A stretch of DNA of 62,966 bases, filler included, from Licmophora abbreviata (Eukaryota), in the NCBI GenBank assembly GCA_900291995.1. It is 7 parts of 7 records of this genome, joined end to end, with 100 filler letters (N's around TTAATTAATTAA, not from the genome) between each part and the next. Parts side by side here need not be neighbours in the genome. Positions count along the whole stretch, not along the records: positions 31,956 to 51,760 come from OLMU01002639.1; 6 more parts are not named here. The stretch is one strand, 5' to 3'. The notes beneath the pieces were generated by a model. That model worked only from the letters and a program-made list of their open reading frames with translations. It was not told the origin of the DNA and did no database searches. The position numbers and the translations under genes were made by a program. How positions within the stretch are numbered: the stretch's first letter is position 1; each line of letters opens with the position of its first letter. Shown here in pieces: positions 15,867 to 61,756 of the stretch.

Positions 15867-16273
15867 CGCGGGGGGGGGAAGCTCCCGATTCCGGCTTGTA
15901 GATGCAATCATCTATAGACCTTCGAACGACATAACGTAAAGTTTGGAGCTGAGTCATGAGTTATTAGATAGACGGGACTCGACCAAGCTTCCACGCAAGT
16001 CATCGACCGACGACGGGAAGACATGTTCGCTTTCCGCCGCGAACTACTCTTAACTTGAAACTGTGTGAGCATCGATTTGTTTGCCATCAACTCTGCAACT
16101 CGAAATGCGTCAGTTTCTTCGGCGTCGTTGTCGTATGTTGTCGACGTTCAGGCACAACAAATTGGATTCAGATCGGACTCAGCGTGGCTGCACGTGATTG
16201 ACTTTAAGAAGTAGCCGTATTACAGTAGCGCCCCATCAAGACTGTAGACTCGCTAGACTGAGGAAAGAAAGGG

Positions 16274-19200: not shown

Positions 19201-19614
19201 TCGGCCGTTGTTGTGGCCAAGGGTGATCTGCGAGAAGCGCTGGAGACAGAAGGAAAGTCGCTGGTTGCCTTGGCCAAATTGGATCCCGATAAGATTATTT
19301 TCTACGAGGCAGGTAGTGACGAAGCCAAGGTAGTATCCGAGGACGACGACTCTGTTCAGTTGGTAGTTCAAGACGGAGTCGAAGCGTTCCTTCCACTGTC
19401 TGGTTTAATCGATCCTGAGAAGGAGCGCGTTCGGTTGACGAAGCAGAGCGAGAAGTTGGCCAAGGAGATTGAGAAACTGTCAGGACGTTTAAAGTCTAAG
19501 GGATTCGTCGACAAAGCACCGGCTGCTGTAGTCGACAAGGCGAAGAGTGAATTATTGGAACTGGAAGATCAGGCGGCCAAGCTCCAAAGTAGCCTATTAG
19601 CACTTCCGCATTAA
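16274..19614 (+). CDS. valS: Valine--tRNA ligase, organellar (bacterial-type), 4 exons
   Basis: [13 protein letters not shown] (HIGH), [38 protein letters not shown]-terminal coiled coil FVDKAP; introns 17205-17297, 17672-17747, 18459-18546; signal-like segment ending SSARAA|F; second in-frame ATG at 16340. Confidence 0.96.
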
Positions 19615-23365: not shown

Positions 23366-23465
23366 NNNNNNNNNNNNNNNNNNNNNNNNNNNNNNNNNNN
23401 NNNNNNNNNTTAATTAATTAANNNNNNNNNNNNNNNNNNNNNNNNNNNNNNNNNNNNNNNNNNNN
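23366..23465. other. Artificial contig linker
   Basis: N44-TTAATTAATTAA-N44. Confidence 0.98.
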
Positions 23466-25335: not shown

Positions 25336-25435
25336 NNNNNNNNNNNNNNNNNNNNNNNNNNNNNNNNNNNNNNNNNNNNTTAATTAATTAANNNNNNNNN
25401 NNNNNNNNNNNNNNNNNNNNNNNNNNNNNNNNNNN
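25336..25435. other. Artificial contig linker
   Basis: N44-TTAATTAATTAA-N44. Confidence 0.98.
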
Positions 25436-31855: not shown

Positions 31856-31955
31856 NNNNNNNNNNNNNNNNNNNNNNNNNNNNNNNNNNNNNNNNNNNNT
31901 TAATTAATTAANNNNNNNNNNNNNNNNNNNNNNNNNNNNNNNNNNNNNNNNNNNN
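31856..31955. other. Artificial contig linker
   Basis: N44-TTAATTAATTAA-N44. Confidence 0.98.
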
Positions 31956-31975
31956 CTCTCTCTCTCTCTCTCTCT
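31956..31975. repeat. (CT)10 microsatellite at contig edge
   Basis: CT dinucleotide run directly after the linker; probable cause of the assembly break. Confidence 0.9.
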
Positions 31976-32164
31976 TCACCGGCGCGTCTGTTCTCATCCT
32001 GAATCGAATGGATGAACGTGTTGTGAGCTGTCATCGCATCTGCAGTCGCTTCTCTCACGCGAAACAGTAAGCGACAGGAGCAGTCTCCCTTCTTCGGTGA
32101 ATTCGACCCTTGGGAGCGCCACATTTGAAACGTTTGAGGACTTGGGGCGCAGAACGCGAACGAA

Positions 32165-34436
32165 ATGAAATTTACCGAGGAGCAGTCTGTATCATCCGTT
32201 GAACACGGTGTGACTCGATTGGAAACGCCTTTTTCGGGACATCCGCCTGATGACGGCGACTTGCAGAAAGCTGAAGAAATGGGTTTCGGAGAAGATCCGT
32301 CAGCTTCCGTTGAGTACGGTGTGAGGCGAGAAGACAGTGACACCGAGCTGTCACCCGAACAAGGGACATCAGGGCACAGTGCAGAGATGGTGCCCGTGAT
32401 GATGACAGATGCATCTGAGATTGATACCAAGGCAAAAAGGGAAAGCAGACACAGCGAAGTTCACCAAGCTCTCCGGTGGGGCGGTAGATTCAAGACGTCG
32501 CTACTGGGCAAGTACGATCGTGATGTAACCAAATATACCAACGAGGAACTGGGCGTTCATGGTCTCAAAGAGGCATTCGATGGAACAAATGGATGGGGCC
32601 GGACGTTGCTTTATCTCGTTTGTTTCACTGTGTTCGGATTCTTGTTCCTATGGTTAACGATTCCACTTGTTAGAGAGTATATGGATAGGACCGTCATTAC
32701 ATCGGTAAGCTCGGTTGGGGTGATGAAGGGCGCGCCTCTCCCAATAGTCACCATTTGTCCAATGGGACGAGGCATCACCTGTGACTGCTTGCTTTGGCGT
32801 CGACTGCATTGTCGGTACCTATCTGAGAAGCGAAATTTTTCATGGATGGTTCGTTTCGACAGATGGTCCTGTTGGCCTAACTTTGACTTTGTAGACCTAC
32901 TAGACGGGCAGTTTCCACGGTGGAAAGATGCTCGTTGTGAAGACTTCTTGCCGAACTCGACTGCTGTTCTTGAGGACACTTGCGGTCCCACGGCATCAGA
33001 CAAGCTGAAAATCGAGAATTGGTCGCAATATACCGAAGACAGTCTCTTCAATACGATCGTTCTGAGAGAGTCTCTTCCAGATGGCCCGTTTATAACGAAC
33101 AAAGAGCTGATGATCTACGGTTCCATTAAATTGGAGGAAAAGGTCACATTCTATAGAACATCGGACGTATACGTCGAGTGGATCAAGGATGTAAATAGGA
33201 CTTTGATCGAGAGGGATTATCACGAATGGTCAAGAATGAAGCGCTGTGTACAGCTTCGTATCCCGCCGGACTATGGTCGTCAGCACTTACCAGGATCCAA
33301 CTACGGCATCCTTGCAGTCGTCACCGGAATCCGTGCCACTGACTTTCCTCTCTTAGACATGTCCAGGTATATACAAATTCAAAGCTTATTATGTGCACGC
33401 CGCTCGACTCTCGCTTACTCAAATTTGTCACTCGTGATTGTGATCGATTCGCAGGGCCACAGCGGCCGTTGAAGTAAACACCAACTACGTTCGAGAGAGC
33501 CGTTACAATGACAGTTATTTTCCTGTTGAAGCAAATGACTTCATTACCATCCCTGCTGGAAGCCAGTCTACTCTTGAGTTCGAGCTCGAAGCATTGGTGC
33601 GGAAGCCTGGATGGGGGTCGCCACAATCTAGACAGTGTTCATCCACGCGCTTGCCACGGAGCCTATGCCTGAGACAGTTGCTAGTGGCCAATGCAGCAGT
33701 AAATTGCAACTGCAGTCGCTCTGGACCGAGCATTCCAGGTGGCTCTGGCCTCTCCGCCCTTGACTGTTCCGCGACCGAGGGCACAGTTGAGTACAACTGC
33801 GTGATCCAACACTTACGAAACCTAAGCGTTGCTGGAGTTCCTCTTTCTATTTGTCCAGAACAGTGCGAAAATCTATATATGTACCCGGTCAAACACACCA
33901 CAGTTCCTTTGACGCTGCCCCAGATAGTATACTTGAAGAACATTGAGGTTGCGGCGTTTCGCCAATCATCCCACTACCTGAACCAATACCAGGAGACTCC
34001 GGCAATCCCAGATTGTGGGATTTTGGAGAGCTCAACCCGTTTGACAACATCACGGAGGATTCGACGATTATGCTTCGTGTTGGCTTGGGCAGACTAGGTG
34101 AGCTTTCACTTCTCTCACACATACTCTCGATTCTTGTTGATTATCCGCTACGGCTCTAATAAGTGTCTAACCATTCTTGCTGAATCTTCGCTCCCAGATC
34201 TCAAGGAGCTATCGGAACTCCCAAGTCTTTCCATTGGGGCGCTATTGGGATCAATCGGAGGTAACGCGGGACTCTGGTGCGGGATAAGTTTTTCACTGAT
34301 TGTCGAGATTATTGAATTCGGCTTGATGGGATTTCTCTATGGAAACGGGATTCTACACAGGGGAGGACAAAAGATCGGCAGAAGCCTACGGAGAAGCGTT
34401 CAGTCTACGGGACGAGCGAAGCGCAGCAAGCGGTAG
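32165..34436 (+). CDS. DEG/ENaC/ASIC (amiloride-sensitive sodium channel) family protein with an apparent 1-nt frameshift near 33947-33961
   Basis: Pre-TM1 VHG; TM1 RTLLYLVCFTVFGFLFLWLTIPLVREY; post-TM1 VITSV...PLPIVTICP; Cys-rich thumb (C..CL...CNC...C...C...CPEQCE..Y); TM2 LSIGALLGSIGGNAGLWCGISFSLIVEIIEF with G-x-S filter; GT-AG introns 33367-33454 and 34098-34197. Confidence 0.85.
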
Positions 34437-34474
34437 GCTCAACCACTTCGATTGATAATGCATTCTAGAAGTAC

Positions 34475-35485
34475 CTATGCGTCCTCTAGTCTGTCTTCCA
34501 CTTGATCGATGAACTTCACCAGGATAGGCGCCAGTACCTTGTTGTCGCGATACTTTTCGAGCAACTGCGCAAGATGAATCACTATTTCTTTTCGTTGCGG
34601 CTTTGTGAAATTAGAGTTTTGCACCTCAATTGACTCAGCTTCTATGGAAGGATGTTCCTCCAGTTGTAGTCGCCGTCTCCGTCGGAGACCGTTGTTGTCG
34701 GCGTTTGTCTCTACGACTGCCTTCCACGTACACGGTATCTCCTCTGGTGGAATCGTTGACACGCCCTCGCTTCGACTTAAAAACTCTGCCATACTCGATG
34801 CCAACTTGGGTCCATGCTCATTGCTTAGGAATGCTTCGTATGATATAACGAGTCGATTCAGCGTTGAATATCGATCCATCCAGTACTCCAGGTGCTTTCG
34901 CCATGTCTCAATCTCCTCGGCAAAATACTTGTCTCTCCACGTGATCCACTCCTCTACCGGTGCGCTCACTCCCAAAGGAGACTGCTTGGTCATGGTTGCA
35001 TATATGTGATTGTGATAGGATGGAAGCGCATCCATGGGGTGTCGCAAGAAGATGACAACACGGGGAATCGATTCTGCCCCCGGTACCTCTCGACTGAGCG
35101 ATGCTGGATAGTGCGTCTTGACACCAACTACGTTACGGTGTCCATTGGAAAAGGCATCGTCGCCTGTTATGAGGCCTGTGAGCGCTTGTGTGACCTGCCA
35201 TGACACCCGTGTTCCAGAACCAGGATACGAAGCCAGAAATGTCGGTGTCACCTTGTGCTTTGGTATTTGTGGGTCACTCAGAGGACAGGCTGGAATTTCG
35301 TCTGTCTGTCTCAGATGAGTCGTCGCCTGCGCATTATCACTTATCATAGAAGAGGTATTCCTAGTGATCATCATAGGACTAGTCGGCCCCGTGATGAAGG
35401 ACAGGAACCAAAAGACCACCACGAACACAACGATCGAACCAACCGAGCTCCGAGGCAATCGATCTCGCAATCGACTTGAGTTCAT
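34475..35485 (-). CDS. Sulfotransferase-like type II membrane protein (PAPS-binding P-loop)
   Basis: N-terminal TM anchor; LASYPGSGT (5'-PSB), VKTHYP, LRHPMDALPSY (3'-PB), VISYE. Confidence 0.8.
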   Translation of the reverse strand: MNSSRLRDRLPRSSVGSIVVFVVVFWFLSFITGPTSPMMITRNTSSMISDNAQATTHLRQTDEIPACPLSDPQIPKHKVTPTFLASYPGSGTRVSWQVTQALTGLITGDDAFSNGHRNVVGVKTHYPASLSREVPGAESIPRVVIFLRHPMDALPSYHNHIYATMTKQSPLGVSAPVEEWITWRDKYFAEEIETWRKHLEYWMDRYSTLNRLVISYEAFLSNEHGPKLASSMAEFLSRSEGVSTIPPEEIPCTWKAVVETNADNNGLRRRRRLQLEEHPSIEAESIEVQNSNFTKPQRKEIVIHLAQLLEKYRDNKVLAPILVKFIDQVEDRLEDA

Positions 35486-35861
35486 TTATGACGCTGGGAC
35501 GATCTTTCCGAAAAATGAAACTTTTTGAAAGCTGCGAAGAACTAGAGCGAGCAGTGATGGACAATGCCTCTCTCTGGTGCAACGACGCGGAGTGTGTGTG
35601 TCTCTTGTTCTCTCGTCGCGCCTTGCGTGAAAATGTGAGCTGAAGTGTGCCAAGAGTCATCGTTTCAAATGACTCTACATTTATGGGAGGCAGATTGGAG
35701 TGAGCCTTGGGCCACGTTGATGCGACATTGATGAGACACGACACGGAGCGACGGACAAGAAAACTTGCCGCCAACAAACGTCATCAATGCAGAGCGCGGC
35801 GTGATGTATGATATGTGTGTGTTTTGGCCATGACAAAACCAACACCGGCAACACAGCCACA

Positions 35862-35881
35862 ACACACACACACACACACAC
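35862..35881. repeat. (AC)10 microsatellite
   Basis: AC dinucleotide run in the divergent intergenic region. Confidence 0.9.
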
Positions 35882-36036
35882 CCTGTAGGAAGGGTAGTCT
35901 CGATCGATCTGGCATAACCTTGAATCTACGTACCATCATTCTGCTTCACAGTACCTCTAAAGGAGCGCCAAGCCTTTTTCGCTGGCCTGGAATTCTGCTG
36001 GTCCTCACGATATCGTCGGTGTCGCCAGTCTTCAGC

Positions 36037-36534
36037 ATGAGACTAGTGATACAACGCGTTGCGTCTGCCTCCGTCACAGTCGATGGGAACACGATTTCAT
36101 CGATCGGACCTGGAATACTGGCACTGGTTGGCGTGCACGAGCATGACACCGAACAAGATCTGACCTACTGTTGCAAGCGCCTATTGGCAGCCAAGCTATG
36201 GGAGAATGCCAATGGAGGAATGTGGCGACACGGTGTCAAACAGAAAGACTTTGAAGTCTTATGCGTCAGTCAATTTACTTTGTATGGTACGCTGAGTAAG
36301 AAGAATCAACCCGACTTCAAACTTGCAATGAAGGCATTGCCGGCCGAGCGCATATACAATCAGTTTTTGGAAATGCTTCGAAGGGACTATCAGCCGGACA
36401 GGATCGCGGATGGGAAGTTTGGTGCCATGATGGACGTAGCGCTTGTCAACGATGGACCTGTAACATTGGTGATTGAAAGTGAGCCCCAACGCCTTCAGAG
36501 AATGGCCTTAGTGAGACGAGTGACGGCGAAATAG
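36037..36534 (+). CDS. DTD1: D-aminoacyl-tRNA deacylase
   Basis: MRLVIQRV..ASVTV, LCVSQFTLYG, PDF..AM, G.FGAMMDVALVNDGPVTL (cis Gly-Pro motif). Confidence 0.95.
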   Translation: MRLVIQRVASASVTVDGNTISSIGPGILALVGVHEHDTEQDLTYCCKRLLAAKLWENANGGMWRHGVKQKDFEVLCVSQFTLYGTLSKKNQPDFKLAMKALPAERIYNQFLEMLRRDYQPDRIADGKFGAMMDVALVNDGPVTLVIESEPQRLQRMALVRRVTAK

Positions 36535-36986
36535 GGACTGAGTCATGACGATCTCGGCTGGGGATTCGTAGTTGCTCTATTTCAGATCACGGGAGCCACC
36601 GCGTCGCTCCTAGTCTAACGAGCCGCATGAATACCTTAGTAGATAGCGTCTCCTGTTAGCAGCAGGCGACTTCACGGAGTTCAGTGCACGAGTGAGTCTA
36701 GAGTCTGGCAGTCGGGGCCATCGAGACATTGATCACACCGGGTGAGGGACCTACGGTCAGAAGAGGGAATTTGGAACTTTTCTTGTCACTCAACGTGGAC
36801 CACGAACGAAAGACGCCCTTCCGCACGGCGACAGAGTATGAAATACACGCGAACACACGATGGTACGAATACGACATATTCCGACGGCTCGAGAACTCTC
36901 GTCTGTTTGGACTCATTGGAAACAACACCCCCGCGCTTTTGAACCCCGTCTAGGCTTTTCAGCTCGTACCACGCTCACAATCGAAA

Positions 36987-37858
36987 ATGGGAGACAATTG
37001 GGATGACAGCGACGACGAATGGGATGTCGGTGATGACGACCTCGACGCCCGACTGGGACTCAGCAAGCTATCTACCAACGACGCGACTCCCAATTTTGAC
37101 GACGAGGAAGAGGATCTCACTCTCAAGGAGAAAGAGCTTGCTTCCAAGAAGGATCATGCTGACTTGAAAAAGAAGGGAAACGCTCTGGCTGCCAAGAAGA
37201 AGGCGGAGCAGGAGCGCCTTGACGAGGAGGAACTTGCTCGTAAGACAATGGAACTGGAAGCTCAGATGGAGGCGAAGCTGTCGCCGGATGAACTTCGAAA
37301 GCTCAAGAGACAGCAGATCGAAGACGCTGACAATGCGCTAACAGATGACTTGTTCGGCGGAGTCGACGATGCACCCAAGCGGCAAGCCGTAGCGACAGCA
37401 GCTTCCGACGCCGTCGTGCTCAAGGACCTCAAAGACCACCTCAAGCATGCTAGAAAAGTGGCACAGGCCATCAAGGTGCGTATGGATCAGGCGACGCGTA
37501 ACGTGAAATGGAGAATTTTGACGCGCTCACCCGGCATCTCATCTTATCTCCTCTACCTTAGACACACGGAAAGACACATCTTGCCTCAGCATTTCTCAAG
37601 GAGGCGATCCAAGAATGCAAGGATGTTCTGGATGAAGACGCCATTGCAGAAATTATCAAGACGTGCAATGTGATCAAGAATGAAAAGGTACAGGCTGCGA
37701 AGCGAAAGGTCAAGGGGCAGGCACAGAAGTCTCAGAAGCGTGACAAGGCGGCCGAGGCCAAGGCGAGAAACACACAGGTGGAGTTGTATGGTGACAGCGA
37801 TGCGCAGATCGATCAGTACGACGACTATGGCGCAGACTACGAGGACAGTTTCTTCTAG
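36987..37858 (+). CDS. EIF3J: Eukaryotic translation initiation factor 3 subunit J (2 exons)
   Basis: Acidic Trp N-terminus MGDNWDDSDDEWD; ELRKLKRQQIEDADNALTDDLFGG; intron 37476-37561; C-terminus YDDYGADYEDSFF. Confidence 0.85.
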
Positions 37859-37907
37859 CATGCAGTTCGAATTGTAGGCTCTTCTGAAAGCTCGCTGATA
37901 TTATTAT

Positions 37908-39278
37908 TTACACTTGTGGTTTCCCCCTCGAGAACTGTTGTAAACACGTCGGTACTCTTTCGTCGTCGCCAGGCCACACCAGCCCCCACTCCCGAATGAA
38001 TTGCGGATTCCAAAAGCGACTAACGTGACGCTGCCCGGCATCGCAAATGACAGTAACAACCGTGGAGTTGGGCTTCAATAGGCTAGCCTCGCGAATAGCC
38101 CCAACGACATTCATGGCTGAACTCGACCCCACCCACAGCCCTTCGGTTCGCAACAGCCAATGCGCCATGTCCACAGCCTCTTGATCTTCTACGCGAGTAG
38201 CGTCGTCAATCATGTCGACGCCCAACTTGAAGTTGGCCGTCATGCGGTCCAAGCCAATTCCTTCGGCCAGTGTATCGTAACGATGCCGCTTCAAAACTCG
38301 TTCTCGTTGTTGCGGTGCGTAAGCGACTCCATGGTGGATTCGGTGATACAGGGCGCTTCCGGGAGGATCTATTAGAATCACGCGACACTTGCCTCTGGAT
38401 TGTTCTTTGAGGTACGATGCAACACCAGCAATCGTCCCACCCGTCCCCGACGACATGACAAAAGCATCTAGTTGTGGACACTCTCTCCACACTTCCGGTC
38501 CCGTCGTTTCGTAGTGCACTTGAAAGTTGGCTTCATTCTCGAACTGATCGATAAAGACCGCCGCAATCTGAAACTGCTGACGTGCCGTTGCAGCAATGCG
38601 TCGTGCGATGTTCACATAGTGATTGGGGTTGCTAATGGCAGAGCACGCAACAACGTGCACGATCGCTCCCAGTGCCGTCAGGATCGCTTGTTTTTCGGAT
38701 GCCTGATCGTCTGGGAGGACCACGATACAGGCATGTCCCCGTGCCGCACATAATGTCGCCAAGGAAATACCAGTCGAGCCCGATGTGCCCTCCACCACGA
38801 GTCCGCCTGTACGAGATTGCTGCATGGCATGCCGAAGAAGGGTCTCGAATGGAATGGTTTCTTCCGATGCGGTGCTATTGATTGGCGTGGACGAGCTGGT
38901 AAACACTGGTGGTTGTCCTGATCTACTATCCTTTGAGTGATAAGTCGCAACATCGATGGGTGGAGGCAGTTGATGAGATTCTTCGGCCCTTTGGATCATA
39001 GAGAGGGCTGCGCGGTCCTTGCCCGAGAATCCCGGATTCATACTCTCCATCTTGACGTAAATGGAGCGGCCAATCAAGGATGAGAGTCTTTCCAGCTTGA
39101 TTAGAGGCGTCTTTCCAATCAAAGCTTCATAGACAGAGCAACCTGATGACCGTTGTCGTGCAATATTACGCCTTCGTCGTCGGTACGACAGGTAGGATCG
39201 CAAGGAAAGCGCCGCAGCTGCACCCGCTAGAGCGGATGGAACGACCAACGATAGTGTTCGAAGCGAAACCTGAGTCAT
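37908..39278 (-). CDS. Cysteine synthase-like PLP enzyme (fold type II) with an N-terminal membrane anchor (MCY1/cys12-like)
   Basis: IGKTPL, VKMESMNPGFSGKDRAA (PLP Lys), VEGTSGSTGISLA, DQFEN.AN..HY.TTGPE, SGTGGT, AEGIG, EGL.VGSSS; hydrophobic N-terminus followed by RRRRR. Confidence 0.9.
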   Translation of the reverse strand: MTQVSLRTLSLVVPSALAGAAAALSLRSYLSYRRRRRNIARQRSSGCSVYEALIGKTPLIKLERLSSLIGRSIYVKMESMNPGFSGKDRAALSMIQRAEESHQLPPPIDVATYHSKDSRSGQPPVFTSSSTPINSTASEETIPFETLLRHAMQQSRTGGLVVEGTSGSTGISLATLCAARGHACIVVLPDDQASEKQAILTALGAIVHVVACSAISNPNHYVNIARRIAATARQQFQIAAVFIDQFENEANFQVHYETTGPEVWRECPQLDAFVMSSGTGGTIAGVASYLKEQSRGKCRVILIDPPGSALYHRIHHGVAYAPQQRERVLKRHRYDTLAEGIGLDRMTANFKLGVDMIDDATRVEDQEAVDMAHWLLRTEGLWVGSSSAMNVVGAIREASLLKPNSTVVTVICDAGQRHVSRFWNPQFIREWGLVWPGDDERVPTCLQQFSRGKPQV

Positions 39279-39650
39279 GCTACGATGGATTCTATAGCCT
39301 TTCAATTCCTAGTTTTTCGCCTACACAGTGAGATCGACGTGGCTTTGTTCGTATTAATGGCGCTGTTGAGGATGCTCTGCGCCGAATGCCTGAAGTTCGG
39401 ATCAACACACCGCCGGCCCTCATCTCGTCCTCATCCCGGCGTTGAAGTGAGATTTTCTGTTAGGCCAGATTTTGGCGCGCCGATAACAGACACACAGATG
39501 GCTGTGGGTTCTGAGCCTTTTTGAGTTCCCAAAAATGAAAAACTGCCCGCGTTGGGACGATGATGTGATCTCGATGGTAATGCTCATCAGCCGGCGTCTT
39601 CCCTCCTCTCGTCCAGGTCAATCTATATCGAACAGCCTTGGAGCAAGAGA

Positions 39651-40544
39651 ATGAGCACCTCTCAAGACAAAAGGTTTCTAGTAGATGAAATTCGTCGAGA
39701 AAATGAAGCGAAATGGAAGACACTTACCGCACTGCATTCTGATGATGCTTCTCATCGCATACAACAAGACGCCGCCAATGACACACTGAATGATATTGCG
39801 CCAATTCATCCGTCGGCCTCGACTGCAGAAACTGCAATAGAGACGTTTAGAGCAGCTCTGCAGGTAGAGCTGGATCTTTTACACTCGGCGCAATGGAAAG
39901 CGCCGAATCATCCAACACAAGCGCAGGACTACATGAGAGAGATTGTAGACTCCTACGAGGAACTGCGGCAGACGCATGCTGTACTGGAACAGCGTTGTCT
40001 ACTAGAATCTCGGAAACTGGAGCGTTTGAAAACTATACTCGTGAATCATCGTCAGCAGCAACAACGATTACAGTCGTTGCGTTCGTCTTTGCAAGATGGC
40101 TCCGCGGCAGCACCCATCGGTGCATCACAGGGCGACACTGGTGACGACGCTGAGAATGACTGGATACGGTCAGAACTACAGTACATTGTTTCGCAGATAC
40201 TTGTTCGCGATAGAAAAGACAGAGTGGAGAAGAACCAGGAGTCTAATGAGAAAGAAAACCCTTGGAACCTGTCCAGGGGTCATGCCGCGAATGATCAGAA
40301 GGATCGGCCGTCGAAGAGACCACGTCGAGATCAAGAAGAGAACATTGAGGGATGGGCAATGAATCGGCTTATTCTGGAACTGGTCAAGCTATTTCTCAGT
40401 TCGCCTGCCGATCCATATCTTCGCTTGGATAGTCCTACTGTCATGGCGGACCCAACCGATATGGAGTTGCTCCGCCAAAGCGGCGTGGTTGAGACTCATC
40501 CGGAGAACAACAAGCTTGCTAGGCTGTCCGATTACTCTAGTTGA
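39651..40544 (+). CDS. CENPK: Probable centromere protein K (CENP-K) homologue
   Basis: N-terminal coiled coil; C-terminal LELVKLFLSSPADPYLRL...ELLRQSGVVETHPENNKLARL matches the CENP-K pattern DPY...ELL..G....HPE....RL as I recall it. Confidence 0.65.
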   Translation: MSTSQDKRFLVDEIRRENEAKWKTLTALHSDDASHRIQQDAANDTLNDIAPIHPSASTAETAIETFRAALQVELDLLHSAQWKAPNHPTQAQDYMREIVDSYEELRQTHAVLEQRCLLESRKLERLKTILVNHRQQQQRLQSLRSSLQDGSAAAPIGASQGDTGDDAENDWIRSELQYIVSQILVRDRKDRVEKNQESNEKENPWNLSRGHAANDQKDRPSKRPRRDQEENIEGWAMNRLILELVKLFLSSPADPYLRLDSPTVMADPTDMELLRQSGVVETHPENNKLARLSDYSS

Positions 40545-40661
40545 CGTCAGTTCGACTTGGTCTATTAAAAGTCTCCCAGAAGTCGCCGTATGAGATGCCT
40601 CATTAGAAAGCACTTTATGCCAATAGGTACTCGCCTAGAGTTCTACTTAGATCTCTACCGC

Positions 40662-42828
40662 TTACAACAGACGTCGTCTTGCCTCATTCACCTCCGTGAC
40701 ACGCACGGATTCCTGAAGCCTTGACTTGGCGTCTCGCAAAAGCTCCACAAGCTCATTTAACTCTTGGGCTCGCGAAGCCACCTTGTGGTACTCGCTCTCT
40801 CCCGCCGCCGCCGATGACACCTGCACCGCAATTTCATCAATATCAGCCGCCGTTTCGAATCCATTCTTGGAGTGAGCGGCTTCTCGCTTCTTCAAACGAC
40901 GCTTCTCGGCCCTTGATCTCATAAACATGATATGCTGGATACACTTGTGGCAGAGAAAATCGTCCTCCGGTTCTGGATACTTGACGGTGTGCTTCTGGCG
41001 GATACATGGAAGGTGAACGGCGTTGGAACAAAAGTCACAACAGAAAAGAGTGCCGCCTTCCTTGCAGATCACGCATTCATCAACGTGCTCTCCTTGATAT
41101 CGCGTGATCGATGGAAACCTACCAGCATCGATTTCATCTGCAAGTACACGCACGTCAATGATCGGTGGAAGGGGCTTGGGTGGTGGCATTTCGGGGGGAG
41201 CCGTCTTTCTGCGTTTTCGTCGCTTCTTTGCTAGGGGCTCTTTCTTGGCGCGCCGCTTTCCTCGCTCCTGGAATCCGAGGCTCTCAAAGACGGAAGGATA
41301 CATGGCACCATTCAATCGATTTCTCTCCTTCATAAGCTGGGTTCGCAAGTCGTGCAGAATCACGTCGGGATTGGGAATGTCGCTCACGTCGCTATCCGAA
41401 TCGTCGTCTGAAGGTTCCACGACCTCTCTTGGAATGGCGCCGGGCAATAGGAAACCCAGTGACGACCAAACATGTGGATAACATGTGAGTCTCTGCAATG
41501 GCCCTCTCTTGCCGCTGACTTCCTGCGATCGCGTCAAGAGCGAATCGACTCGATCTTCAATGTCCTTGTGGATCTGGAGTGACTGCTCCCCTTGCGCTGC
41601 CTTCTTTTTGACACAAACCTGACCTTGAGCGTGGTATGCATATCCAGGTCGAGATGAAAACTTCCGTCCGCATTCGGCGCAGACGAATTGGTCGATCGAC
41701 TCGACGTACTCTTCCGTCAGCAATCGCCGCTGAAGAAGCAACTTCATGCTGCAAGGAGCCGAGTTCGGTTTGGATACAGGCAGCGATGCACTGCTGATTT
41801 CTGACTTGTCATCATCACTGTTATTATTGTCACAATCCTCAGCCTCTCTGCCTACGAGGTCCACGTGCACGTCTCGCTCGTCTGGGACAAGCAAACACTC
41901 CACAATGCGGTCCGGATGGGACTCTATCGGACAGAGGGGATCTTGCGACGGCGGCTTTGGGGCAGAGAGCACTCGCCCTTCAGAAGCTTTGGTTCTTGGA
42001 TCTCCTTCAAAGTAAACATCAAAAACAGTTGCCTGCTTGACTTCACCCCGCTGATACAACTCCCCAAGTTGGCGACGACGAGAACGGTTCCGTACCGAGA
42101 GCGTAGTCCACTTTCGTCTCTGTCGCGCTTCCACTTTGTGTCTGGCACTTTTGAAATTCTTGGCCAGCTGACTGGCATTGGATGGGCGCTGTGCAGTGGA
42201 CTTCGCGCGTGTGTCTGACACCACTTCGACGACGCCAAAGGGCGTGACAAACTTCGATCCGGGCTTTAGCGTGTCAAATATGGTAGCATTGGCAGAAGGT
42301 CCCCTCTTGCTGCCGCGTTGGCGCTGTGAAGCATCGCCTCGACATACATTGTGGTCTACCGGAAGCCAAACAAACAAAGAAAGATCAGAGAGACTGCACA
42401 CATACTCTTTCTCAACAATGAATTCGGATCCACATCATAGATACACTACACTCACCGACATGATAATCCCTCCCCATTATCGACGTGAACAATCGCTTGC
42501 AATGCGGGCACGTGCGACTTTTGACAGAGCCACGATCACGACCACCAGATGCCTTTTTCCTTCCCTTTCGTTTCTTGGGAGCTCTTTCAGGAGGTTTCTT
42601 CGCGGCTTTGTCATTGTCCGTCGTAGCTGCCGCCTTGCTGCCACTAGCAGCACGACCTCGACGACGCTTTTTTGAGGGAGTCGTCGTTGTTTTATCGGGG
42701 ATCACTTTCACATAGTCTTCGCTGTAATCCACTTTCTTTCTCTTGCGCGTTGATTTCCTTCGTGGCAACAAAGGAGACTCCGGCGGCTCCTCTTCGTTGC
42801 CACTGCCATTGTCCGACGACGCCATCAT
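40662..42828 (-). CDS. Nuclear protein with two C2H2-like zinc fingers and a PHD finger (2 exons)
   Basis: CPHCKRLFTS..GRDYHV|DHNVC across intron 42455-42356; CAECGRKFSS..GYAYHA..VC; PHD CVICKEGGTLFCCDFCSNAVHLPC...FLCHKC; many basic NLS clusters. Confidence 0.85.
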
Positions 42829-43140
42829 GGTGGATGTGTTCAGAATTTTGGCAAAAAAAACAGGATGGGGTGCGAATTTCAGTGCGAGCTCGATAAAACG
42901 AGAGCTCGAATATCGTTTCGCTTCGCTCCACGCGGAGCCAACATGTTGACGTTGACCTCCGTACAAAACGAGCGTACGAGCTAGTCGAAGAGGTCAACTC
43001 ATCAAGAACCCGGAAGTTGAACTTTTTCACAACCGCAAAAGATTTTGCGCCGACATCGGCCGGTAGATCGCATCACCTTGTTTCGCCGGCGTCACTCTTC
43101 CGTGTTGTTGTCGAGTACCAAACATACATCTAAGAGAAAC

Positions 43141-44417
43141 ATGAAGGTGGCTATTGTGGCATTGCTGTCCACGTTGGTGGTGGCAAATGGATTCGCTGTC
43201 CGCTCAGGATCATTTGCTCGGCTCTCGAGGTGAGAATGTTTTTAAGGGAATCGCTTCCAAATTTACCTGATGTTGCGGTGTCGTCTGTGGTATGTTCTAT
43301 GTCTGTTTTTCTTACTTTCTTGCTTTCCTTTTGTCGTATCTACAGTCTGCCCATGTCAACAACAGAAGAATCGAAAACAGAAGGCAAAAAAGCTGGTGCC
43401 GATGCTCCTCCCGTCAGCATAGGCTGGAACTCTCACCAGCCGGTCGACCAAGTCCCCGACTCTCTCGTGCGCGAAGGCGACGGACCCGACGGAAACTACC
43501 CTATGCGCGCCAAGTTTGAGAAAATGTGCCGCGAGGCCCAAAAGTCCATCACAAAAGCCATCGAAGAGATCGATGGCGAGGCCAAGTTCCAAGAGGACTG
43601 CTGGACCCGTGCCAACGGCGGGGGCGGCATGTCTCGCGTCATGAGCAACGGAAAGGTATTTGAAAAGGCTGGAGTCAACCTCAGTGTCGTGTATGGTTCC
43701 ATGCCGCAAGAAGCTCTTCAGGCTGCCACGGAGCGAGGTGTGGATCGGAGCAAGGGCATGGCTCCCGGTGAGCGTGTACCCTTCTTTGCCTGCGGTCTCA
43801 GCAGTGTCATGCACCCCAAGAACCCTTTCGCCCCAACTATGCATTTCAACTATCGGTACTTTGAGACAGATGGAGGAGTCTGGTGGTTTGGAGGCGGAAC
43901 CGACATTACGCCCTCGTACATTGACGAGGACGACATGAAACACTTCCACGGAACTTACAAGGAGGTGTGCGACAAGCATGATCCGGACTACTACAAGGAA
44001 TTCAAGGCGTGGGCTGACCGATATTTTGTCATTAATCATCGTAATGAAACCCGCGGCTGTGGTGGAATCTTCTTTGATGACCAGAATGATCGGGATCCGG
44101 ACGAGATCTTTGAGTTTTCAAAGGAGAGCCTCAACTCGGTCGTCAAGGCGTACGGACCGATCGTTGAAAAGCACAAGGACGATCCGTTCACTGAAAAACA
44201 AAAGGAGTGGCAGCTCATTCGGAGAGGACGCTACGTTGAGTTCAACTTGGTATATGATCGTGGAACCGTCTTTGGTTTGAAGACCGGCGGGCGCATTGAA
44301 AGCATTCTCATGAGTCTTCCCGAGACGGCACGATGGGAATACGATAACAAGCCTGAACCCGGGTCTCCCGAGGCCGAGCTTCTGGATGTATGCAAGCACC
44401 CGAGGGACTGGGTGTAA
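43141..44417 (+). CDS. hemF: Oxygen-dependent coproporphyrinogen III oxidase, plastid-targeted (2 exons)
   Basis: Signal peptide MKVAIVALLSTLVVANG|F; intron 43230-43345; FEKAGVN.SVV.G, HPKNPFAPTMHFNYRYF, WWFGGGTDITP, RGCGGIFFDD, RRGRYVEFNLVYDRGT.FGL. Confidence 0.96.
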
Positions 44418-44638
44418 GCCAGTACAGCCATTGGTGAAAGGAATGCGGTTGCAGAGACGATTTTTGTCGTGAAACGATGGTGGTGATAGATAATGCACTA
44501 CAAAATCTCAATTATACGCATATTGTCTCTCTTTTATGATATAACCTTATACCTGCCGCTACAAGCATAGTTCTGTTGAACTGACTCAGCATTCCAGTGA
44601 TGTAAACAGGTATACGGAAGAATGCACACACAATATGT

Positions 44639-46779
44639 TCAAACTTCCTGGAACGGTCTGGTTGCAGAAGAACTCCTTCTGGCCGATCGACTCGGGGCGC
44701 CGGAGCGCCGAGATCGGCTTCGTGTTTCGTTGGAAGAGTCCGCATACTGCCTACGCGGTGCACGAGCTTCGTCGGAGTCCGCCGATGCGAACTTCCCTGA
44801 TGAACGTGGGACGCTCGTACTGCGCCCTCGGCGCCTAGAATCGCCAAGTTCTTGTTCCAGTATGACACTTGTGTCTTCGTTGTTCCCCGCACAAGCAAAG
44901 GATCCTACAAGAGTTTTTGCATGCTGCGCCAGGCCACTAACGGAAGATGCAACAGATCCAGGACCACGCTTCGGGCGCGATGTTTCAAAGGTGTCCTTCA
45001 GACCTTCCATATTGAAATCGACCGGAGGTTTTAGATTGGATGCCCCCGTTCGAGCCTGCTCCATGTACTCTTCACTCTTGCTTTGTTTCATTTTCATGTA
45101 CTTCTGCTTGTAAGCGACGGTACTTTCTTGTGCAGAAGTCAGCTTCTCTTCCCATTCCTGTTTTCAACATCCGAAACGGCAATCGAAAGGTGAGCACGTC
45201 GTTGGCGCAGACAACAGCCAATGAGCCGCAACGAGCCAGAATTTCATCGATCTTACCGCCTTTGCCAATAGGTACTCGCCCTTGAGCTTTCCAAGATTCT
45301 GCTCAAGCTTTTCTTCGTTCTTCATTTGGTTTCTCTGGGCGTCGCTCAGAGCAATCCAGAAGCGCTGCGACACGCTCTGCAACGGCGTATTATCGTACAC
45401 AGGCGCGCCCAAGACTTCCTTCATTTCCTCCACAAGGCTCGCTAGCTCCTCCTCGGAACTCTGAACAACACCAGTCTGTGCACCGGTACTTCCCTGAGAC
45501 GGATGATCCTTGGGCTTGACTAAGACACAATCTCCTCGTTTGCTCGGATCAGGCAGTTTCGGCCCATTTCCTGCTCGAAGTCCCGATCGCAAGACGTCGT
45601 CCATGGCGTACCTCAAAATGGCACACGCACGATCCGGGCTCATACTTTCTGCCCGCGCAATGGACAACTGCAATCGTCCACGATGATCCGAGTCGACCGG
45701 CAACATGGCAGAAGAGCTCTGACAGGCTGCCTCGTACAACTGAAAACACTCAGTATGCTTGTTTGCTTGTCTCAGAGGTGCCCCCTGTCGAATCGCTTCT
45801 GTCAATGCTTCCTTGACATCCGGATCAATGTACTCGTCATGCCTCGACGGAGCACCTTTGGTTGGGGGAGATGCCGCCGGCACAGTGTCGTCAACCGCAA
45901 CGCCCTTTTGCTTGCGCAACTCCTCCATTTCTGCCTCTCTTCGAGACGATTCAAAGGCGGCTCCCTCCATGTGGGCTGCTTCGACGACATGCTGAAAGAG
46001 TTTCTGCACGTCAGCAAATGCATCGATAATTGCCTCGCCCATGACATCGTAGCCCTAAAGCAATTTGAAGACGCGTCAGCAGAGGCAAACTAGCGAAAAG
46101 GCGGCCAGACACACACATTTTTCACTCCACCATGACTTACCTCGTCATAGTGCTCCATCAGTTTTTCCGCAATTGCTAAAAGACCATCTTCATGTCCCGA
46201 TAAGGCGTCCACCAGCAATTCCGGAGTAACAATGGGATTCGCTTCATCTCCAGCGGCCTCGTCCTGCTGCTGCTGTTGCGACCTGGGGGTCCGTGTCGGA
46301 GACGTCCTGCTACGAGGCGTCACCGGCGAGCGCCCGTTACTGGGCTGCTGGTTGAACTCTTTCGGGGAGGACTCGTTGGTACTGTGGCGATAGCCCGACG
46401 ACGGAGGATCAGTCTTGTTGTGACTACGCCTCGTGTCGTGTTCCACGGACGCCATGGCACGTTCTCGCGTCGTCGGACGATTTCCACTACTGCTTGCGAA
46501 CTTTCGTCCCGTCGAGTGACTCCTGGTAGAGGGCGCTGCGTCATTGTCTCCTTCACGAGAAGACGACTTGGCATTGCGCTCTAGCGAGCGGGCCCGCGAC
46601 GGCGTGCCGCCGTTGTTGTTGTTGCTGTCCTCGATGCGGCGATTGTACTCACGTGCGCGTTCCAAGACAGACGAACGCGAAGACTGCGTTGATTTATACG
46701 AGGCGACACTCTTGGATTCACCGCTAGTAATGGTATCTTGTGTCGTCATGTCAGGAGAGGAAACAGGGGGAGATCTCAT
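44639..46779 (-). CDS. Hypothetical protein with disordered ends, helical core and coiled coil (3 exons)
   Basis: Introns 46140-46055 and 45256-45158 (GT-AG) join three ORFs in frame; core VTPELLVDALSGHEDGLLAIAEKLMEHYD.GYD.MGEAIIDAF and AIRQGAPL.....ECFQLYE. Confidence 0.75.
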
Positions 46780-47325
46780 GGTCGGCGGCGCCGTCAAACT
46801 TGAAATGTTTTTTGGCAGGAAGAAAGTGGAAGTGGGTCGTTTTGAGAAGAATGATCCAACGTCTGATGGTACAAAATGTGTAGAATTGCACGTGAGAGGC
46901 CAATGCTCGACATGAATACTAAGGATCCGAATAATGTCAATGCTGCTGTACGGGACCAAACAAAAATTGACGCTTGAACATCACGCCCAGCCGTCTCTAC
47001 ACAGGCCTTTCATGACCATTCCGTTCATCCTTCTTCACACTTGAACACTGCAAGGATTATCTAAAGAGTGCATAGGAATGTTGATCCCTCTCTCATGGCG
47101 GCCGCCATGCACCTTTTCAATCTAGCAAACAAGATTCGATTTATCAGGCATCGACATCATGATACGAATATCATGATACGTCTTAATTAAACCAGCGTCC
47201 GATGTTACGTTTCAGCCCTTTATTTTCCAAACTTCCGAGCGACGCGCGACGATGATGTGATGGCGACCCCATCAGCCATCAGAGCAAATTCTGGACACAT
47301 CAAGCTCATCGTTCATTGTACCACC

Positions 47326-48396
47326 ATGGCTGTCTCATCGAATGTTCCTTACCTAGTGACAAATGGGTGGATATGCTTGATAAGCATCCTCGCAACACAA
47401 TATCCGTTCGAAAAGAGGAAGGCAGTAGCGATGATTGTGACACCACCGACAGCATGTCTCGTCGGAGCGATAGTGGCCTGGTACCATGCCCATCCCGTGC
47501 TGGCATTTGTGTTGATAATGCTTCTACTTATGTTGATAGTCTTCACTCTCAGACTGAGTCACATGGTGATTCAGAATCGGCAACCCGCCTTTCCGGAAGC
47601 GCTTCAGATTCTGCAAGACCGTGCACGGAAAGGATCTGTCCAACGTACTCCCGAGTTTGACATCTATCTGCCCGCTGAGCTCGTTCACTCTACTACTTCA
47701 AATAGATCAACACTACGACAACAGAGCATAGACTGTGCCTTTCTTTTTATTCCGGGCGCTTTGATTGAACCTACCGCGTACGCCGGCATTGCGTCGAAAC
47801 TAGCGGAGGAGGGAATTCTCGTGGTGGTGCAAAATACGGAACCCTTTCGATTGCCGTCAACCCTTGCAGACTGCACAGAAGAATCCATTCGCGACACGAT
47901 GAAGTATGTTCGGGTTGAACTTGGTATTCGGGTCACGGAATGGGCCATTGGAGGCCACAGTATGGGAACAACGGCAGCGGCGTGTCTGACAACTCGAATA
48001 TCGCAAATTCGCAAGCTCGTCTTCTGGGGATCCTGCGTTTTAAAAGGGGTTGACTTGAGCGACGTCCATGACTTATCTGTCTTGATTGTGAATGGCACCA
48101 ACGATGGGTTTTTCACCAGCAAATCTGAAGAAGAACTACAAGATTTTCGAGCAATGTTACCTCCTGAGCACCGACATGATGGCAATAATGGTAGCATGTG
48201 CCGCCGAGCAGGAGGAACTAAGTATCATTTGATAAAAGGTGGAAATCATGCCGGGTTTGCGCATTATGGACCACATACGTTTTCTCGGCAAGATGGCGAG
48301 CGTTCTATCAGTCTCGAAGAGCATCATGGAGAGGCTGTGCAAGTCACGGTCAAGTTTCTGTTGTCATCATCATCCAAGGCGACTAAAAGGGAATAA
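47326..48396 (+). CDS. Alpha/beta hydrolase with N-terminal membrane helices
   Basis: Oxyanion region FIPGAL..P.AY; nucleophile elbow GGHSMG; GTNDG (Asp); IKGGNHAGFAHYG (His); Kozak-like CCACCATGG at the start. Confidence 0.85.
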   Translation: MAVSSNVPYLVTNGWICLISILATQYPFEKRKAVAMIVTPPTACLVGAIVAWYHAHPVLAFVLIMLLLMLIVFTLRLSHMVIQNRQPAFPEALQILQDRARKGSVQRTPEFDIYLPAELVHSTTSNRSTLRQQSIDCAFLFIPGALIEPTAYAGIASKLAEEGILVVVQNTEPFRLPSTLADCTEESIRDTMKYVRVELGIRVTEWAIGGHSMGTTAAACLTTRISQIRKLVFWGSCVLKGVDLSDVHDLSVLIVNGTNDGFFTSKSEEELQDFRAMLPPEHRHDGNNGSMCRRAGGTKYHLIKGGNHAGFAHYGPHTFSRQDGERSISLEEHHGEAVQVTVKFLLSSSSKATKRE

Positions 48397-48756
48397 CTAA
48401 GGTGCGTTTTGTTCAGGAGTTGAAGACGCATCTGAGGTACGAGTATAGATGAGCATATTTCTAGCGAATGAATCATACGTACGTACTTGACGTCTCGTAG
48501 CAATTCGGTTCGAAGCGATGATGGTTACAAAAGAGAGGTAGCGCTGTGTGAGGTCTATGCAACGCAAAATCCAATGAGAAAGTCACAAAAAGATACCTTG
48601 CTGACGTACGTACTTTGCGTAGATTCAGTACGGAATCTCACGTATAGAGGTTGGCATTCCGAAACTCCAAGAGAAAGAACACGCACTCCACGAGCACACA
48701 GGCAACACTGCAATCTAGGTGATCTTGTTGTGGCACTTGTAAGACAAGAGTTTACG

Positions 48757-50478: not shown

Positions 50479-50548
50479 TCGTTCAAGAGTTTTGGGTCAA
50501 TTCTAGTAGAGAGTAGTCAATCTTAATAGTTCTAGCGATCCCTGAGTA

Positions 50549-51656
50549 TCACATTCGACAAACGCCTCTACCACATAGATGTCTCAGTTCAGTCAGCTTT
50601 GAGCGATCTCGTCGATATCTCTTTTGTTTCTGGTCGTTGGGCTTGGGTCCGTCCGTCAGAAGGAGGATTCTATGAGGTGACTGTGACGGCGCATTCTCCC
50701 AAGCATCCCGAGTCAAAGCGTCGGCTCGTACGCGAAACCCCGCGTCGAGTGTCGCGTTTGGGAAGAATTTCATGCCGACCACGGCCTCTAGATCCGTCCA
50801 CTGCACCAAGTAATTTTCAAGCGAAACCCTCCCCTTGGTCGCTTCTCGATTTGGCATGACAAACGCGGCGAAGCGAACAATCGCGTCGTGGTCGTCAACG
50901 ATAGCTACTACCTTGTACAAGTGTGTCGGCACCGACACCAGAGAGGGGGGAGTTCCTATCGCCTGGTACTGATATTGAAACACGGTATTTCCATTTTCTG
51001 TTTTGGTATACGAGCTCGGAAGCCACAAGGGACCGGAAACGACGTACGTGATCGACTTCGTTTCGTGCCACTCCTTGTCAGCCACGGTGCGTACCCACTC
51101 CTCGAGTTGCGCCCAGGGGCCTCGGTTCATGGATGGCACTTGGGGGGATCACATTCGTCAAGGAGAACGTATCCCGCAAAACACTATCAGGATGATGGAA
51201 ATGAAAATCCGCCACTGGTGCCAAGTGCCCACGATCGTAGCCACTGTTGCGATAGTGCCCATCGCGCGAACGAAACTCGACGGGAAGTGCTGGCTCCTCC
51301 CGAAATCGGTGCCTCCTCGCCGGTGAAGCAGTGTTACTATGATTCTGTCCATCACTGCGTTTGACACCCTCCAATCTTTCCAGAACATAGATCGGTGTTC
51401 TAGTACGGGCGTCATAACCAATCTCCAGGAACGGGTTGGGCTGAAATACAGAGATTGGACTACTTGGTGACATGCTGCTGCTACTGGGCGTATCAGCGCG
51501 GTCTCCTAGACCAATGACGACTCGGTCATGATGGCCATCCTTGCCGTTTCTCTCCTCGGTCTTGGCCTTGGGAATGACACAAGCCAACCCCACTGCACTA
51601 CCGCAAAGGACAATGCTTCTCTGTACAGCTCTGAATTGCATGTACGGCGGAACCAT
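50549..51656 (-). CDS. ENDOG: DNA/RNA non-specific endonuclease (EndoG/Nuc1 family), frameshifted at a G6 run (51142-51147)
   Basis: YD.RTR.P.YVLE.L, YRNSGYDRGHLAP.AD, TFSLTNV.PQ...NRG.W..LEEWVR, VVSGPLWLP, VSVPTHLYKV, AFVMPN, DLEAVVG..FF; the two ORFs join if one base of the run is removed. Confidence 0.88.
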
Positions 51657-51760
51657 TTGCCACGAGGTGCCTCTCTCGCGTGTCGTTCATGATGCTGTGA
51701 TGTGTAGTCGGCGCATCACGTGTGTTGCGACTCGACCAAAAATTCTCCTCCTTTTCGCTG

Positions 51761-51860
51761 NNNNNNNNNNNNNNNNNNNNNNNNNNNNNNNNNNNNNNNN
51801 NNNNTTAATTAATTAANNNNNNNNNNNNNNNNNNNNNNNNNNNNNNNNNNNNNNNNNNNN
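51761..51860. other. Artificial contig linker
   Basis: N44-TTAATTAATTAA-N44. Confidence 0.98.
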
Positions 51861-61656: not shown

Positions 61657-61756
61657 NNNNNNNNNNNNNNNNNNNNNNNNNNNNNNNNNNNNNNNNNNNN
61701 TTAATTAATTAANNNNNNNNNNNNNNNNNNNNNNNNNNNNNNNNNNNNNNNNNNNN
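61657..61756. other. Artificial contig linker
   Basis: N44-TTAATTAATTAA-N44. Confidence 0.98.

Follow-up and report, generated by a model that had tools for sequence, protein, structure and literature searches.

A probable full-size DEG/ENaC/ASIC cation-channel gene in a diatom-type genome

In animals, channels of the DEG/ENaC/ASIC family serve salt balance, touch, pain and acid sensing, and the family was long regarded as an animal invention. The characterised members are trimers with a pore lined by the second transmembrane segment (TM2), pass Na+ (some also Ca2+) independently of voltage, and are opened by a change in the ectodomain driven by protons, peptides or force, some of them being constitutively open. 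Diatoms for their part perceive shear as well as osmotic and pH changes, and they fire action potentials, yet to our knowledge their receptor channels are largely unknown. Here we describe a locus at positions 32165-34436 (+ strand) of a 62,966-nucleotide (nt) stretch of the Licmophora abbreviata assembly GCA_900291995.1 (the whole stretch is called the window below), which is in all probability a true nuclear gene, from a marine organism of diatom type (an ochrophyte), and encodes a full-size cation-channel subunit of this family.

Outside animals, the available excerpts of Elkhatib et al. 2023 (PMC10507113) name Deg/ENaC homologues in Cafeteria roenbergensis and Tunicaraptor unikontum and a candidate in Symbiodinium sp. 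KB8; they report BLAST survey candidates in 'Stramenopiles (one species)', and leave open whether an ancient origin with massive loss or lateral transfer accounts for this distribution. Choanoflagellates possess DEG/ENaC homologues too, according to the accessible part of PMC10770216. An earlier note on this DNA, made from the sequence alone, had spoken of scattered non-animal homologues, in agreement with the three unicellular species named in those excerpts. No paper describing DEG/ENaC channels in diatoms was found in a literature search that included stramenopile, algal and protist topics, although supplementary tables could hold diatom entries. A 2024 survey of diatom channels (PMC11085791) has in its available text no mention of ENaC, ASIC, amiloride, degenerin or PF00858, the matches in PMC11986044 and PMC10982851 are reference-list entries only, and a 2026 preprint lists PF00858 among marine algal protein domains, undiscussed in the portion that could be consulted. 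ASC domains are counted across species in a figure of PMC12806904. The novelty that the same note had supposed thus holds as far as the diatom literature goes, but is reduced by the published heterokont Cafeteria homologue and by diatom transcripts already public under the name 'uncharacterized protein'. We place the window gene in a new, divergent branch that includes diatoms, within a known family already reported in print from one other stramenopile, and consider its novelty moderate.

Family assignment, relatives and predicted fold

The open reading frame (ORF) of the channel gene opens at 32138, has its first ATG at 32165, and would encode a subunit of about 666-675 residues, full-size for the DEG/ENaC/ASIC family. 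The parts of the gene and the motifs of its product, TM1 being the first transmembrane segment, are as follows.

32165..33366, + strand: exon 1, residues 1-400 plus 2 nt of codon 401, with the predicted cytoplasmic N-terminus, the His-Gly (HG) motif, TM1 and the first half of the ectodomain
32558..32563, + strand: His-Gly motif (H132 G133) before TM1
32600..32671, + strand: TM1, residues 146-169 (Kyte-Doolittle 19-residue windows >1.5 starting at residues 144-153)
32735..32761, + strand: P-L-P-I-V-T-I-C-P after TM1, aligning to F-P-A-V-T-L-C of ASIC1
33367..33454, + strand: intron 1, 88 nt, GT..AG, phase 2 (AG/G = Arg)
33455..33947, + strand: exon 2a, palm and thumb part of the ectodomain, with C-N-C and C-P-E-Q-C-E
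33705-33716, + strand: C-N-C, in exon 2a
33852-33869, + strand: C-P-E-Q-C-E, in exon 2a
33948..34030, + strand: candidate region of a frame break, with an intron or a 1-base assembly deletion as options
34031..34097, + strand: exon 2b, the final beta-strand before TM2 (N-P-F-D-N ... V-G-L-G-R-L), frame open from 33947
34098..34197, + strand: intron 2, 100 nt, GT..AG, phase 1 (G/AT = Asp)
34198..34436, + strand: exon 3, TM2, G-I-S, a short basic C-terminus and the stop TAG at 34434-34436
34227-34343, + strand: TM2, in exon 3 (hydrophobic segment at residues ~611-635)
34281-34289, + strand: G-I-S, residues 616-618, in TM2

All the motifs by which the earlier note had recognised the family (HG, TM1, P.VTICP, CNC, CPEQCE and TM2 with G-I-S) were thus recovered in place. 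The protein has two hydrophobic segments only, and the 16 cysteines and 8 N-x-S/T sequons between them fit an extracellular domain; the topology would be that of a two-TM protein with a large ectodomain of ~430 residues and cytoplasmic termini, the orientation being a prediction. When four pieces of the window gene were scanned with the Pfam ASC profile (PF00858), as the earlier note had proposed, two of them exceeded the curated cut-off of 23.6 bits: exon 1 (32165-33364, 400 residues) scored 35.4 bits (E 8.2e-9; residues 130-201 on profile positions 6-76), and exon 3 (34200-34433, 78 residues) scored 26.7 bits (E 3.6e-6; profile positions 420-455). The start and the end of the profile are therefore both present in the correct order, ~2 kb apart. 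All 19 of the 19 chains listed for exon 3 in the PDB are DEG/ENaC channels, among them ASIC5 (E 7.4e-4), FaNaC (4.3e-3) and ENaC gamma (8.3e-3); in these alignments the G-I-S of the window falls on the filter position, opposite G-A-S in ASIC5, G-I-S in FaNaC and S-C-S in ENaC gamma, and the acidic residues that follow G-x-S match in all three as well.

Relatives of the channel are rare. A word-indexed search with exon 1 returned two proteins among 1681 candidates, namely P0001 (662 residues; 47% identity to exon 1 over 85% of the query, 44% to exon 2a and 52% to exon 2b) and P0002 (605 residues, 37% identity to exon 1). A profile built from these two and the window pieces matched 42 proteins at E <= 1e-3 among 1.84 billion cluster representatives, 27 of them at <= 1e-10 and 19 at <= 1e-30, the weak tail (E 1e-10 to 1e-3) consisting of canonical ASC proteins that match in the TM1 region only. 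Pfam ASC was found in 33 of the 43 relatives scanned (31 over the cut-off), the 10 without a match being short fragments; among the full-length relatives, P0001 covers profile positions 7-455, P0005 5-455 and the Odontella protein P0044 1-431. Cluster look-ups, which covered 30 of the 42 profile matches, showed that the cluster of P0002 contains an Odontella aurita MMETSP transcript (UniRef100_A0A7S4K912, the P0044 just mentioned, an 'Uncharacterized protein') and that P0007 is a Stephanopyxis turris MMETSP0794 transcript, with ASC scores of 73.6 bits for P0044 and 89.1 bits for P0007. Three more relatives are MMETSP or Tara (MERC) transcripts, one JGI cluster member was automatically named 'Amiloride-sensitive sodium channel', and the sole NCBI-sourced protein among the looked-up relatives is the distant P0037. 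Several relatives are transcriptome entries or lie on contigs barely longer than their ORF (e.g. 662 residues on 2054 nt); the channel clade thus appears to be expressed somewhere, which says nothing on this locus. None of the 161 stretches that alignment A3 matched in metagenome contigs is a relative. Two further loci, L001 and L002, were rejected as relatives, the match being a 44-residue one at 48% identity (E 1e-4 in a two-sequence database) that we treat as chance; they turned up in the exon 2a scan as identical 8132-nt loci from different JGI metagenome records.

In a maximum-likelihood tree of 19 rows picked for length (the remaining 24 matches were excluded), the window protein pairs with P0001 (100/98) inside an 11-row clade (93/98) that includes Odontella aurita and Stephanopyxis turris; a 4-row clade (100/99) is its sister, and the branches of the canonical ASC rows are very long. 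The presence of these two diatom transcripts in the clade makes animal contamination very unlikely as the source of the gene. Within the main clade, 15 of the 16 ectodomain cysteines are kept in every row that covers them and the remaining one, C198, in 8 of 9, all cysteines of exon 2a being kept in 9/9 or 10/10 rows. The TM2 motif G-G-N-x-G-L-W-C-G-[ILM]-S-F recurs in P0001, P0005, P0007, P0011 and P0019, with P0009 one position off, and G-[ILMV]-S is present in 6/6 other main-clade rows that fully cover TM2. The members of the sister clade (P0017, P0018, P0020 and P0027) carry G-P-D or G-P-A in place of G-x-S and have no HG, so that their pore chemistry may be different; the cluster of one of them holds a Tara (MERC) transcript.

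Sequence comparison of P0001 with the PDB by phmmer reached the TM2 region of FaNaC only (E 0.0023), and profile A2 reached ASIC1/2 at E 0.07-0.28 only; in a weak profile alignment the HG of the window aligns to the HG of ASIC1 and ASIC2. Structure comparison went further. An AlphaFold2 model of P0001 made from a 37-row alignment had a predicted local distance difference test score (pLDDT) of 80.7 and a predicted TM-score (pTM) of 0.73, with low values only at residues 1-82 and 641-662, and its helix 126-155 corresponds to TM1 of the window protein. Foldseek gave 91 PDB matches at E <= 1e-3, headed by ASIC2a 6l6p (3.9e-19), ASIC1a and FaNaC1, with TM-scores (target) of 0.53-0.69; for ASIC2a, ASIC1 and FaNaC, E is ~1e-19 and the TM-score (target) 0.63-0.69. 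With VIA-align the model superposed on ASIC1 6x9h at Z 21.1 over 368 of 403 residues (model 133-615), on ASIC1/2 entries at Z 19-21, on FaNaC 7yvb at 18.8 and on ENaC at 17-18.7, the DEG/ENaC chains overall giving Z 15-21 with 300-405 residues aligned. In a protein-language-model atlas restricted to clusters of at least 50 members, the 30 nearest clusters to P0001 were all ASC and all animal (top score 0.96). The model and its comparisons support an ASIC1-like subunit fold for P0001, the closest relative, and together with the Pfam matches at both ends of the gene and the PDB matches of exon 3 they bear out the family to which the earlier note had assigned it.

It could also be that the protein, despite an ASIC-like fold, does not work as a cation channel and is instead a PAC/TMEM206-like anion channel or a receptor that conducts nothing. 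PAC/TMEM206 chains do match the P0001 model (Z 11.9-12.6, i.e. ~12), ion selectivity cannot be read from a sequence, and P0017, P0020 and P0027 of the sister clade are without G-x-S. However, the alignment to PAC/TMEM206 spans ~240-256 residues against ~360-400 for DEG/ENaC chains at Z 15-21, the only Pfam match is to ASC, and TM2 is close to those of FaNaC, ASIC5 and ENaC gamma, both at G-x-S and at the acidic residues that come next. We consider a protein other than a cation channel to be quite improbable.

Gene structure and the break in the reading frame

Across introns 1 and 2 the window pieces are colinear with P0001 and P0002 without a gap at either junction, and the gene calls on the metagenome contigs of P0016 and P0019 diverge or carry an insertion exactly at the site of intron 2, from which we infer that the relatives have an intron at the same position. 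The two introns of the earlier note (33367-33454 and 34098-34197) are thus backed by homologue colinearity, but they do not yield an open frame. The frame that joins exon 3 (G/AT = Asp) is open from 33947 and differs from that of exon 2a. As the conserved Q-I-V-Y-L-K-N-I-E (to 33947) lies in the first frame and the conserved N-P-F-D-N ... V-G-L-G-R-L (from 34034) in the second, the frame change must fall within 33948-34033. By script, 17 GT/GC..AG intervals were identified whose removal would restore the frame, and two of these retain the K-N-I-E and N-P-F-D-N flanks.

33948-34030, + strand: third-intron candidate A, 83 nt, GT..AG
33956-34011, + strand: third-intron candidate B, 56 nt, GT..AG

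The 83-nt candidate would give a loop equal in length to that of Odontella, Stephanopyxis, P0009 and P0011, and the 56-nt candidate one equal to that of P0004, P0005, P0010 and others; in the P0001 model the region is a low-confidence surface loop (block 541-550, pLDDT 61). A donor at 33927, with a GTATAC start like that of intron 1, was rejected since its use would remove the conserved V-Y-L-K-N-I-E. The codon-usage log-likelihood over 33948-34033 (frame A +1.9 and +2.7, frame B -0.7 and +2.2, against an in-frame mean over 14 codons of 1.6 with a standard deviation of 2.2) does not discriminate between the options.

An alternative to a third intron is an error of assembly. The Endonuclease_NS gene of the same contig falls into two overlapping frames, which meet in a run of six C and cover positions 21-110 and then 109-219 of the Pfam profile; since this leaves no room for an intron, the frame change there is an indel, and probably an assembly error. 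Likewise, towards the 3' end of the D-Tyr-tRNA deacylase ORF, one more C follows position 36489 in metagenome contigs of two independent runs (X1 and X2), owing either to a strain difference or to an assembly deletion at 36489-36490. These two cases make assembly indels a ready explanation for the frame break in the channel gene. For the break at ~33948-34033, a short third intron or an indel of the assembly is the likeliest cause, ahead of a dead gene: we would give the intron somewhat less than an even chance and the indel slightly less again, a true frameshift being the unlikely remainder.

Metagenome contigs offered a further view of the locus. In a comparison over four runs, with pieces of 87-266 nt, near-identical short pieces of the channel gene and of its neighbours were found in the same three runs (X1, X2 and X4, from three studies), which are labelled as marine metagenome or with a coded organism. 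Between the window and these contigs there are seven exon differences, four of them silent and the others I>V, I>V and T>S; they point in the direction expected of a working gene, in a small sample.

A number of observations weigh against reading 32165-34436 as a working gene for a channel of this family. The coding sequence with two introns is 2084 nt long, not a multiple of 3, and the exon-2 frame (from 33456) meets an in-frame TAG at 34095-34097. Both third-intron candidates have weak splice sites, with GTTGCG or GTTTCG as donors and GAG as one acceptor, and the metagenome contigs of the four runs hold nothing over 33929-34110 except an 18-nt CT-repeat piece, nor does any of them bridge the channel gene and a neighbour. 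The two exon-2 pieces alone had no Pfam match, and exon 1 had no significant phmmer match in the PDB, the top one being an unrelated TGF-beta (E 0.17). HG is kept in 7 of the 9 covering main-clade rows, Odontella having EG and P0005 QG. The fold evidence comes from P0001, a stand-in 47% identical, and not from the window's own protein. Finally, the proton-sensor His of ASIC1a (the second of the H-H pair after TM1, which we take to be H73 and to fall at this place by an assumed offset) would align to Val177 of the window protein, so that ASIC-style proton gating is unsupported, as judged from a weak profile alignment (E 0.074).

One rival reading is a recently inactivated pseudogene: exon 2 would truly lack one base, the protein would end short of TM2, and no channel would be made. 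The TAG at 34095-34097, the lack of a strong donor in either intron candidate and the failure of the codon-usage score to separate the options are in line with this. Nevertheless, the rest of the gene is intact over ~666 codons and retains the 16 ectodomain cysteines, HG and the TM2 motif, the downstream frame is open and conserved through TM2, the differences among populations are for the most part silent or conservative (4 + 3 of 7), and the same contig has an indel, probably one of the assembly, in Endonuclease_NS, besides the extra C after 36489 in two runs. An inactivated gene therefore seems improbable to us, and we retain the reading of an intact channel gene. Beneath it on the opposite strand, no ORF of at least 150 residues matches a Pfam family.

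Genomic setting and possible role

The window is a pseudo-molecule of seven contigs joined by six identical 100-nt linkers (N44 + TTAATTAATTAA + N44), so that arguments of linkage across linker positions are invalid. The true contig of the channel gene is 31956-51760. The earlier note had placed the channel, eIF3j and coproporphyrinogen oxidase genes on one contig, and this is correct for the true contig, but the window as a whole is made of seven.

14037-14136, 23366-23465, 25336-25435, 31856-31955, 51761-51860 and 61657-61756: linkers
34475-35485, - strand: sulfotransferase-like gene, convergent to the channel gene, on contig 31956-51760
36954-37670: eIF3j, on contig 31956-51760
43134-44414: coproporphyrinogen III oxidase (E 7.7e-134), on contig 31956-51760
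50552-51686, - strand: Endonuclease_NS, on contig 31956-51760, with the frame change at ~51144-51149
Also on contig 31956-51760: D-Tyr-tRNA deacylase, a PALP enzyme, a PHD-finger protein and an alpha/beta hydrolase

The stop of the channel gene (34434-34436) is separated by 38 nt from the stop of the convergent sulfotransferase-like gene (34475-34477), which shows the genome to be very compact at 34434-34477. For the coproporphyrinogen oxidase domain, identity is 93% with a JGI protein, 92% with an MMETSP0116 protein, 89% with Ditylum brightwellii, 87% with both Cylindrotheca closterium and Epithemia, and 86% with the bolidophyte Triparma. Such values are the signature of a diatom, or of an ochrophyte close to diatoms. 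The ORF of this oxidase, for which the earlier note had supposed plastid targeting, has a ~127-residue N-terminal extension (43134-43514) that includes a hydrophobic stretch. No RNA run sharing 31990-34600 is listed in the run search, the shares of the listed runs being 0.07-0.14. Elsewhere in the window, a valyl/class-I tRNA synthetase gene at 16262-19611 (+ strand) is divided into four ORFs (16262-17233, 17273-17749, 17676-18476 and 18547-19611), and an ORF at 5178-5588 (- strand) on contig 1-14036 has a galectin domain (PF00337, E 1.6e-8), which is unusual for a diatom-type genome.

One could suppose that the channel gene is foreign, having come from an animal or another eukaryote through chimeric assembly or binning. 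The window does consist of separately assembled contigs linked together, the family is overwhelmingly animal, and the linkage of the channel gene to its neighbours rests on the assembly, since no metagenome contig bridges two genes. Yet the gene lies within one true contig together with diatom-like genes and 38 nt from a convergent neighbour, G+C content is uniform along that contig, the introns are short (88 and 100 nt), the clade includes transcripts of cultured diatoms, and the canonical ASC rows are very distant, with long branches and a profile match (E 1e-10 to 1e-3) in TM1 only. A foreign origin is in our opinion highly improbable. The earlier note's case against animal contamination is sustained by the diatom-like oxidase on the contig and by the Odontella aurita and Stephanopyxis turris transcripts in the channel clade, which are better evidence than the intron style on which it had relied.

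One may then ask what the product of the channel gene does. The window protein keeps the parts that form pore and gate, i.e. HG, TM1, the palm strands into TM2, G-x-S and the acidic residues that follow, and on these grounds we read it as a depolarising cation channel. By analogy with the characterised members, three subunits would form a voltage-independent cation pore lined by TM2 and probably preferring Na+; an extracellular cue acting on the large ectodomain would open it, and the inward Na+ gradient of seawater would then depolarise the cell. Block by amiloride and a location in the plasma membrane can be presumed on the same basis. As to the gating cue, for which the protons, peptides or mechanical force of the earlier note are pure conjecture, a chemical one (H+ included) has in our rough estimate about an even chance, the other half being shared equally between a mechanical cue and a constitutive or regulated leak. 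In the available excerpts of PMC10507113, H73 and K211 of ASIC1a are called quintessential for proton-sensitive ASICs, and a placozoan channel is described as gated by protons through other residues. Protons, if they are the cue here, would likewise act through residues other than the ASIC His.

Odontella sinensis has fast Na+/Ca2+ action potentials (PMC11085791, available text), and a role of the channel as a sensor upstream of such spikes is attractive. One might go further and imagine that some diatoms, mainly centric ones (Odontella, Stephanopyxis), keep an old, diatom-specific DEG/ENaC branch as a cell-surface sensor, in which touch or shear, a pH jump or a small ligand would let Na+ enter and produce a receptor potential that fires the Na+/Ca2+ action potentials; we advance this as a tentative idea that is rather doubtful at present. 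If it were true, the sensory role of the family would be older than its use in animal neurons or run in parallel with it, and the family would be as old as the split of stramenopiles and opisthokonts or would have been laterally exchanged between them. In any case, a distinct, constrained and full-size diatom clade adds a second, ecologically dominant stramenopile lineage to the question of the origin of the family, and the expressed transcripts from cultured diatoms are a tractable entry point for experiments.

Comparison with described channels

The window protein resembles ASIC1, ASIC2 and ASIC5 (6x9h, 4nty, 9e4a, 6l6p and 9mky) in being a two-TM subunit with a large, Cys-rich ectodomain, HG before TM1 and G-x-S in TM2, and the P0001 model superposes on ASIC1 at Z ~21 over 360-400 residues. 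It differs in that identity in the structural alignment with the P0001 model is only 14-16%, that the ectodomain has ~430 residues and 16 cysteines as against ~370 residues in ASIC, and that the N-terminus is ~130 residues long. FaNaC (7yvb, 8on7-8ona) has the closest TM2, with G-L-W-M-G-I-S as compared with G-L-W-C-G-I-S in the window, and its fold matches the P0001 model at Z 15.7-18.8, whereas outside TM2 phmmer found no sequence similarity with P0001 as query. The ENaC subunits alpha, beta, gamma and delta (6bqn, 6wth, 9blr) share the family and the fold (Z 17-18.7), and TM2 matches at E 8.3e-3. ENaC has 16 ectodomain cysteines. ENaC gamma, however, has S-C-S at the filter where the window has G-I-S, and ENaC is a heterotrimer, whereas one gene is seen in the window. 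PAC/TMEM206 (7jna, 7sqg) likewise forms a trimeric channel of two-TM subunits, and the core of its ectodomain is related, but its superposition on the P0001 model has a much lower Z (~12) and a shorter coverage, it has no Pfam link to the family, and its TM2 is without G-x-S.

The homologues of Cafeteria roenbergensis, Symbiodinium sp. KB8 and Tunicaraptor unikontum (PMC10507113) are non-animal members like the window gene, and one of them is from a stramenopile; this stramenopile, however, is a non-photosynthetic bicosoecid, and the survey names no diatom in the excerpts available. Also compared were the transcripts of Odontella aurita (P0044) and Stephanopyxis turris (P0007), which are labelled 'Uncharacterized protein' or are nameless. 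Their identity to P0001 is ~33% (alignment A4), and Odontella has EG instead of HG, but they belong to the same clade as the window protein and share its pattern of 16 cysteines, and P0007 of Stephanopyxis turris has a TM2 motif identical to that of the window.

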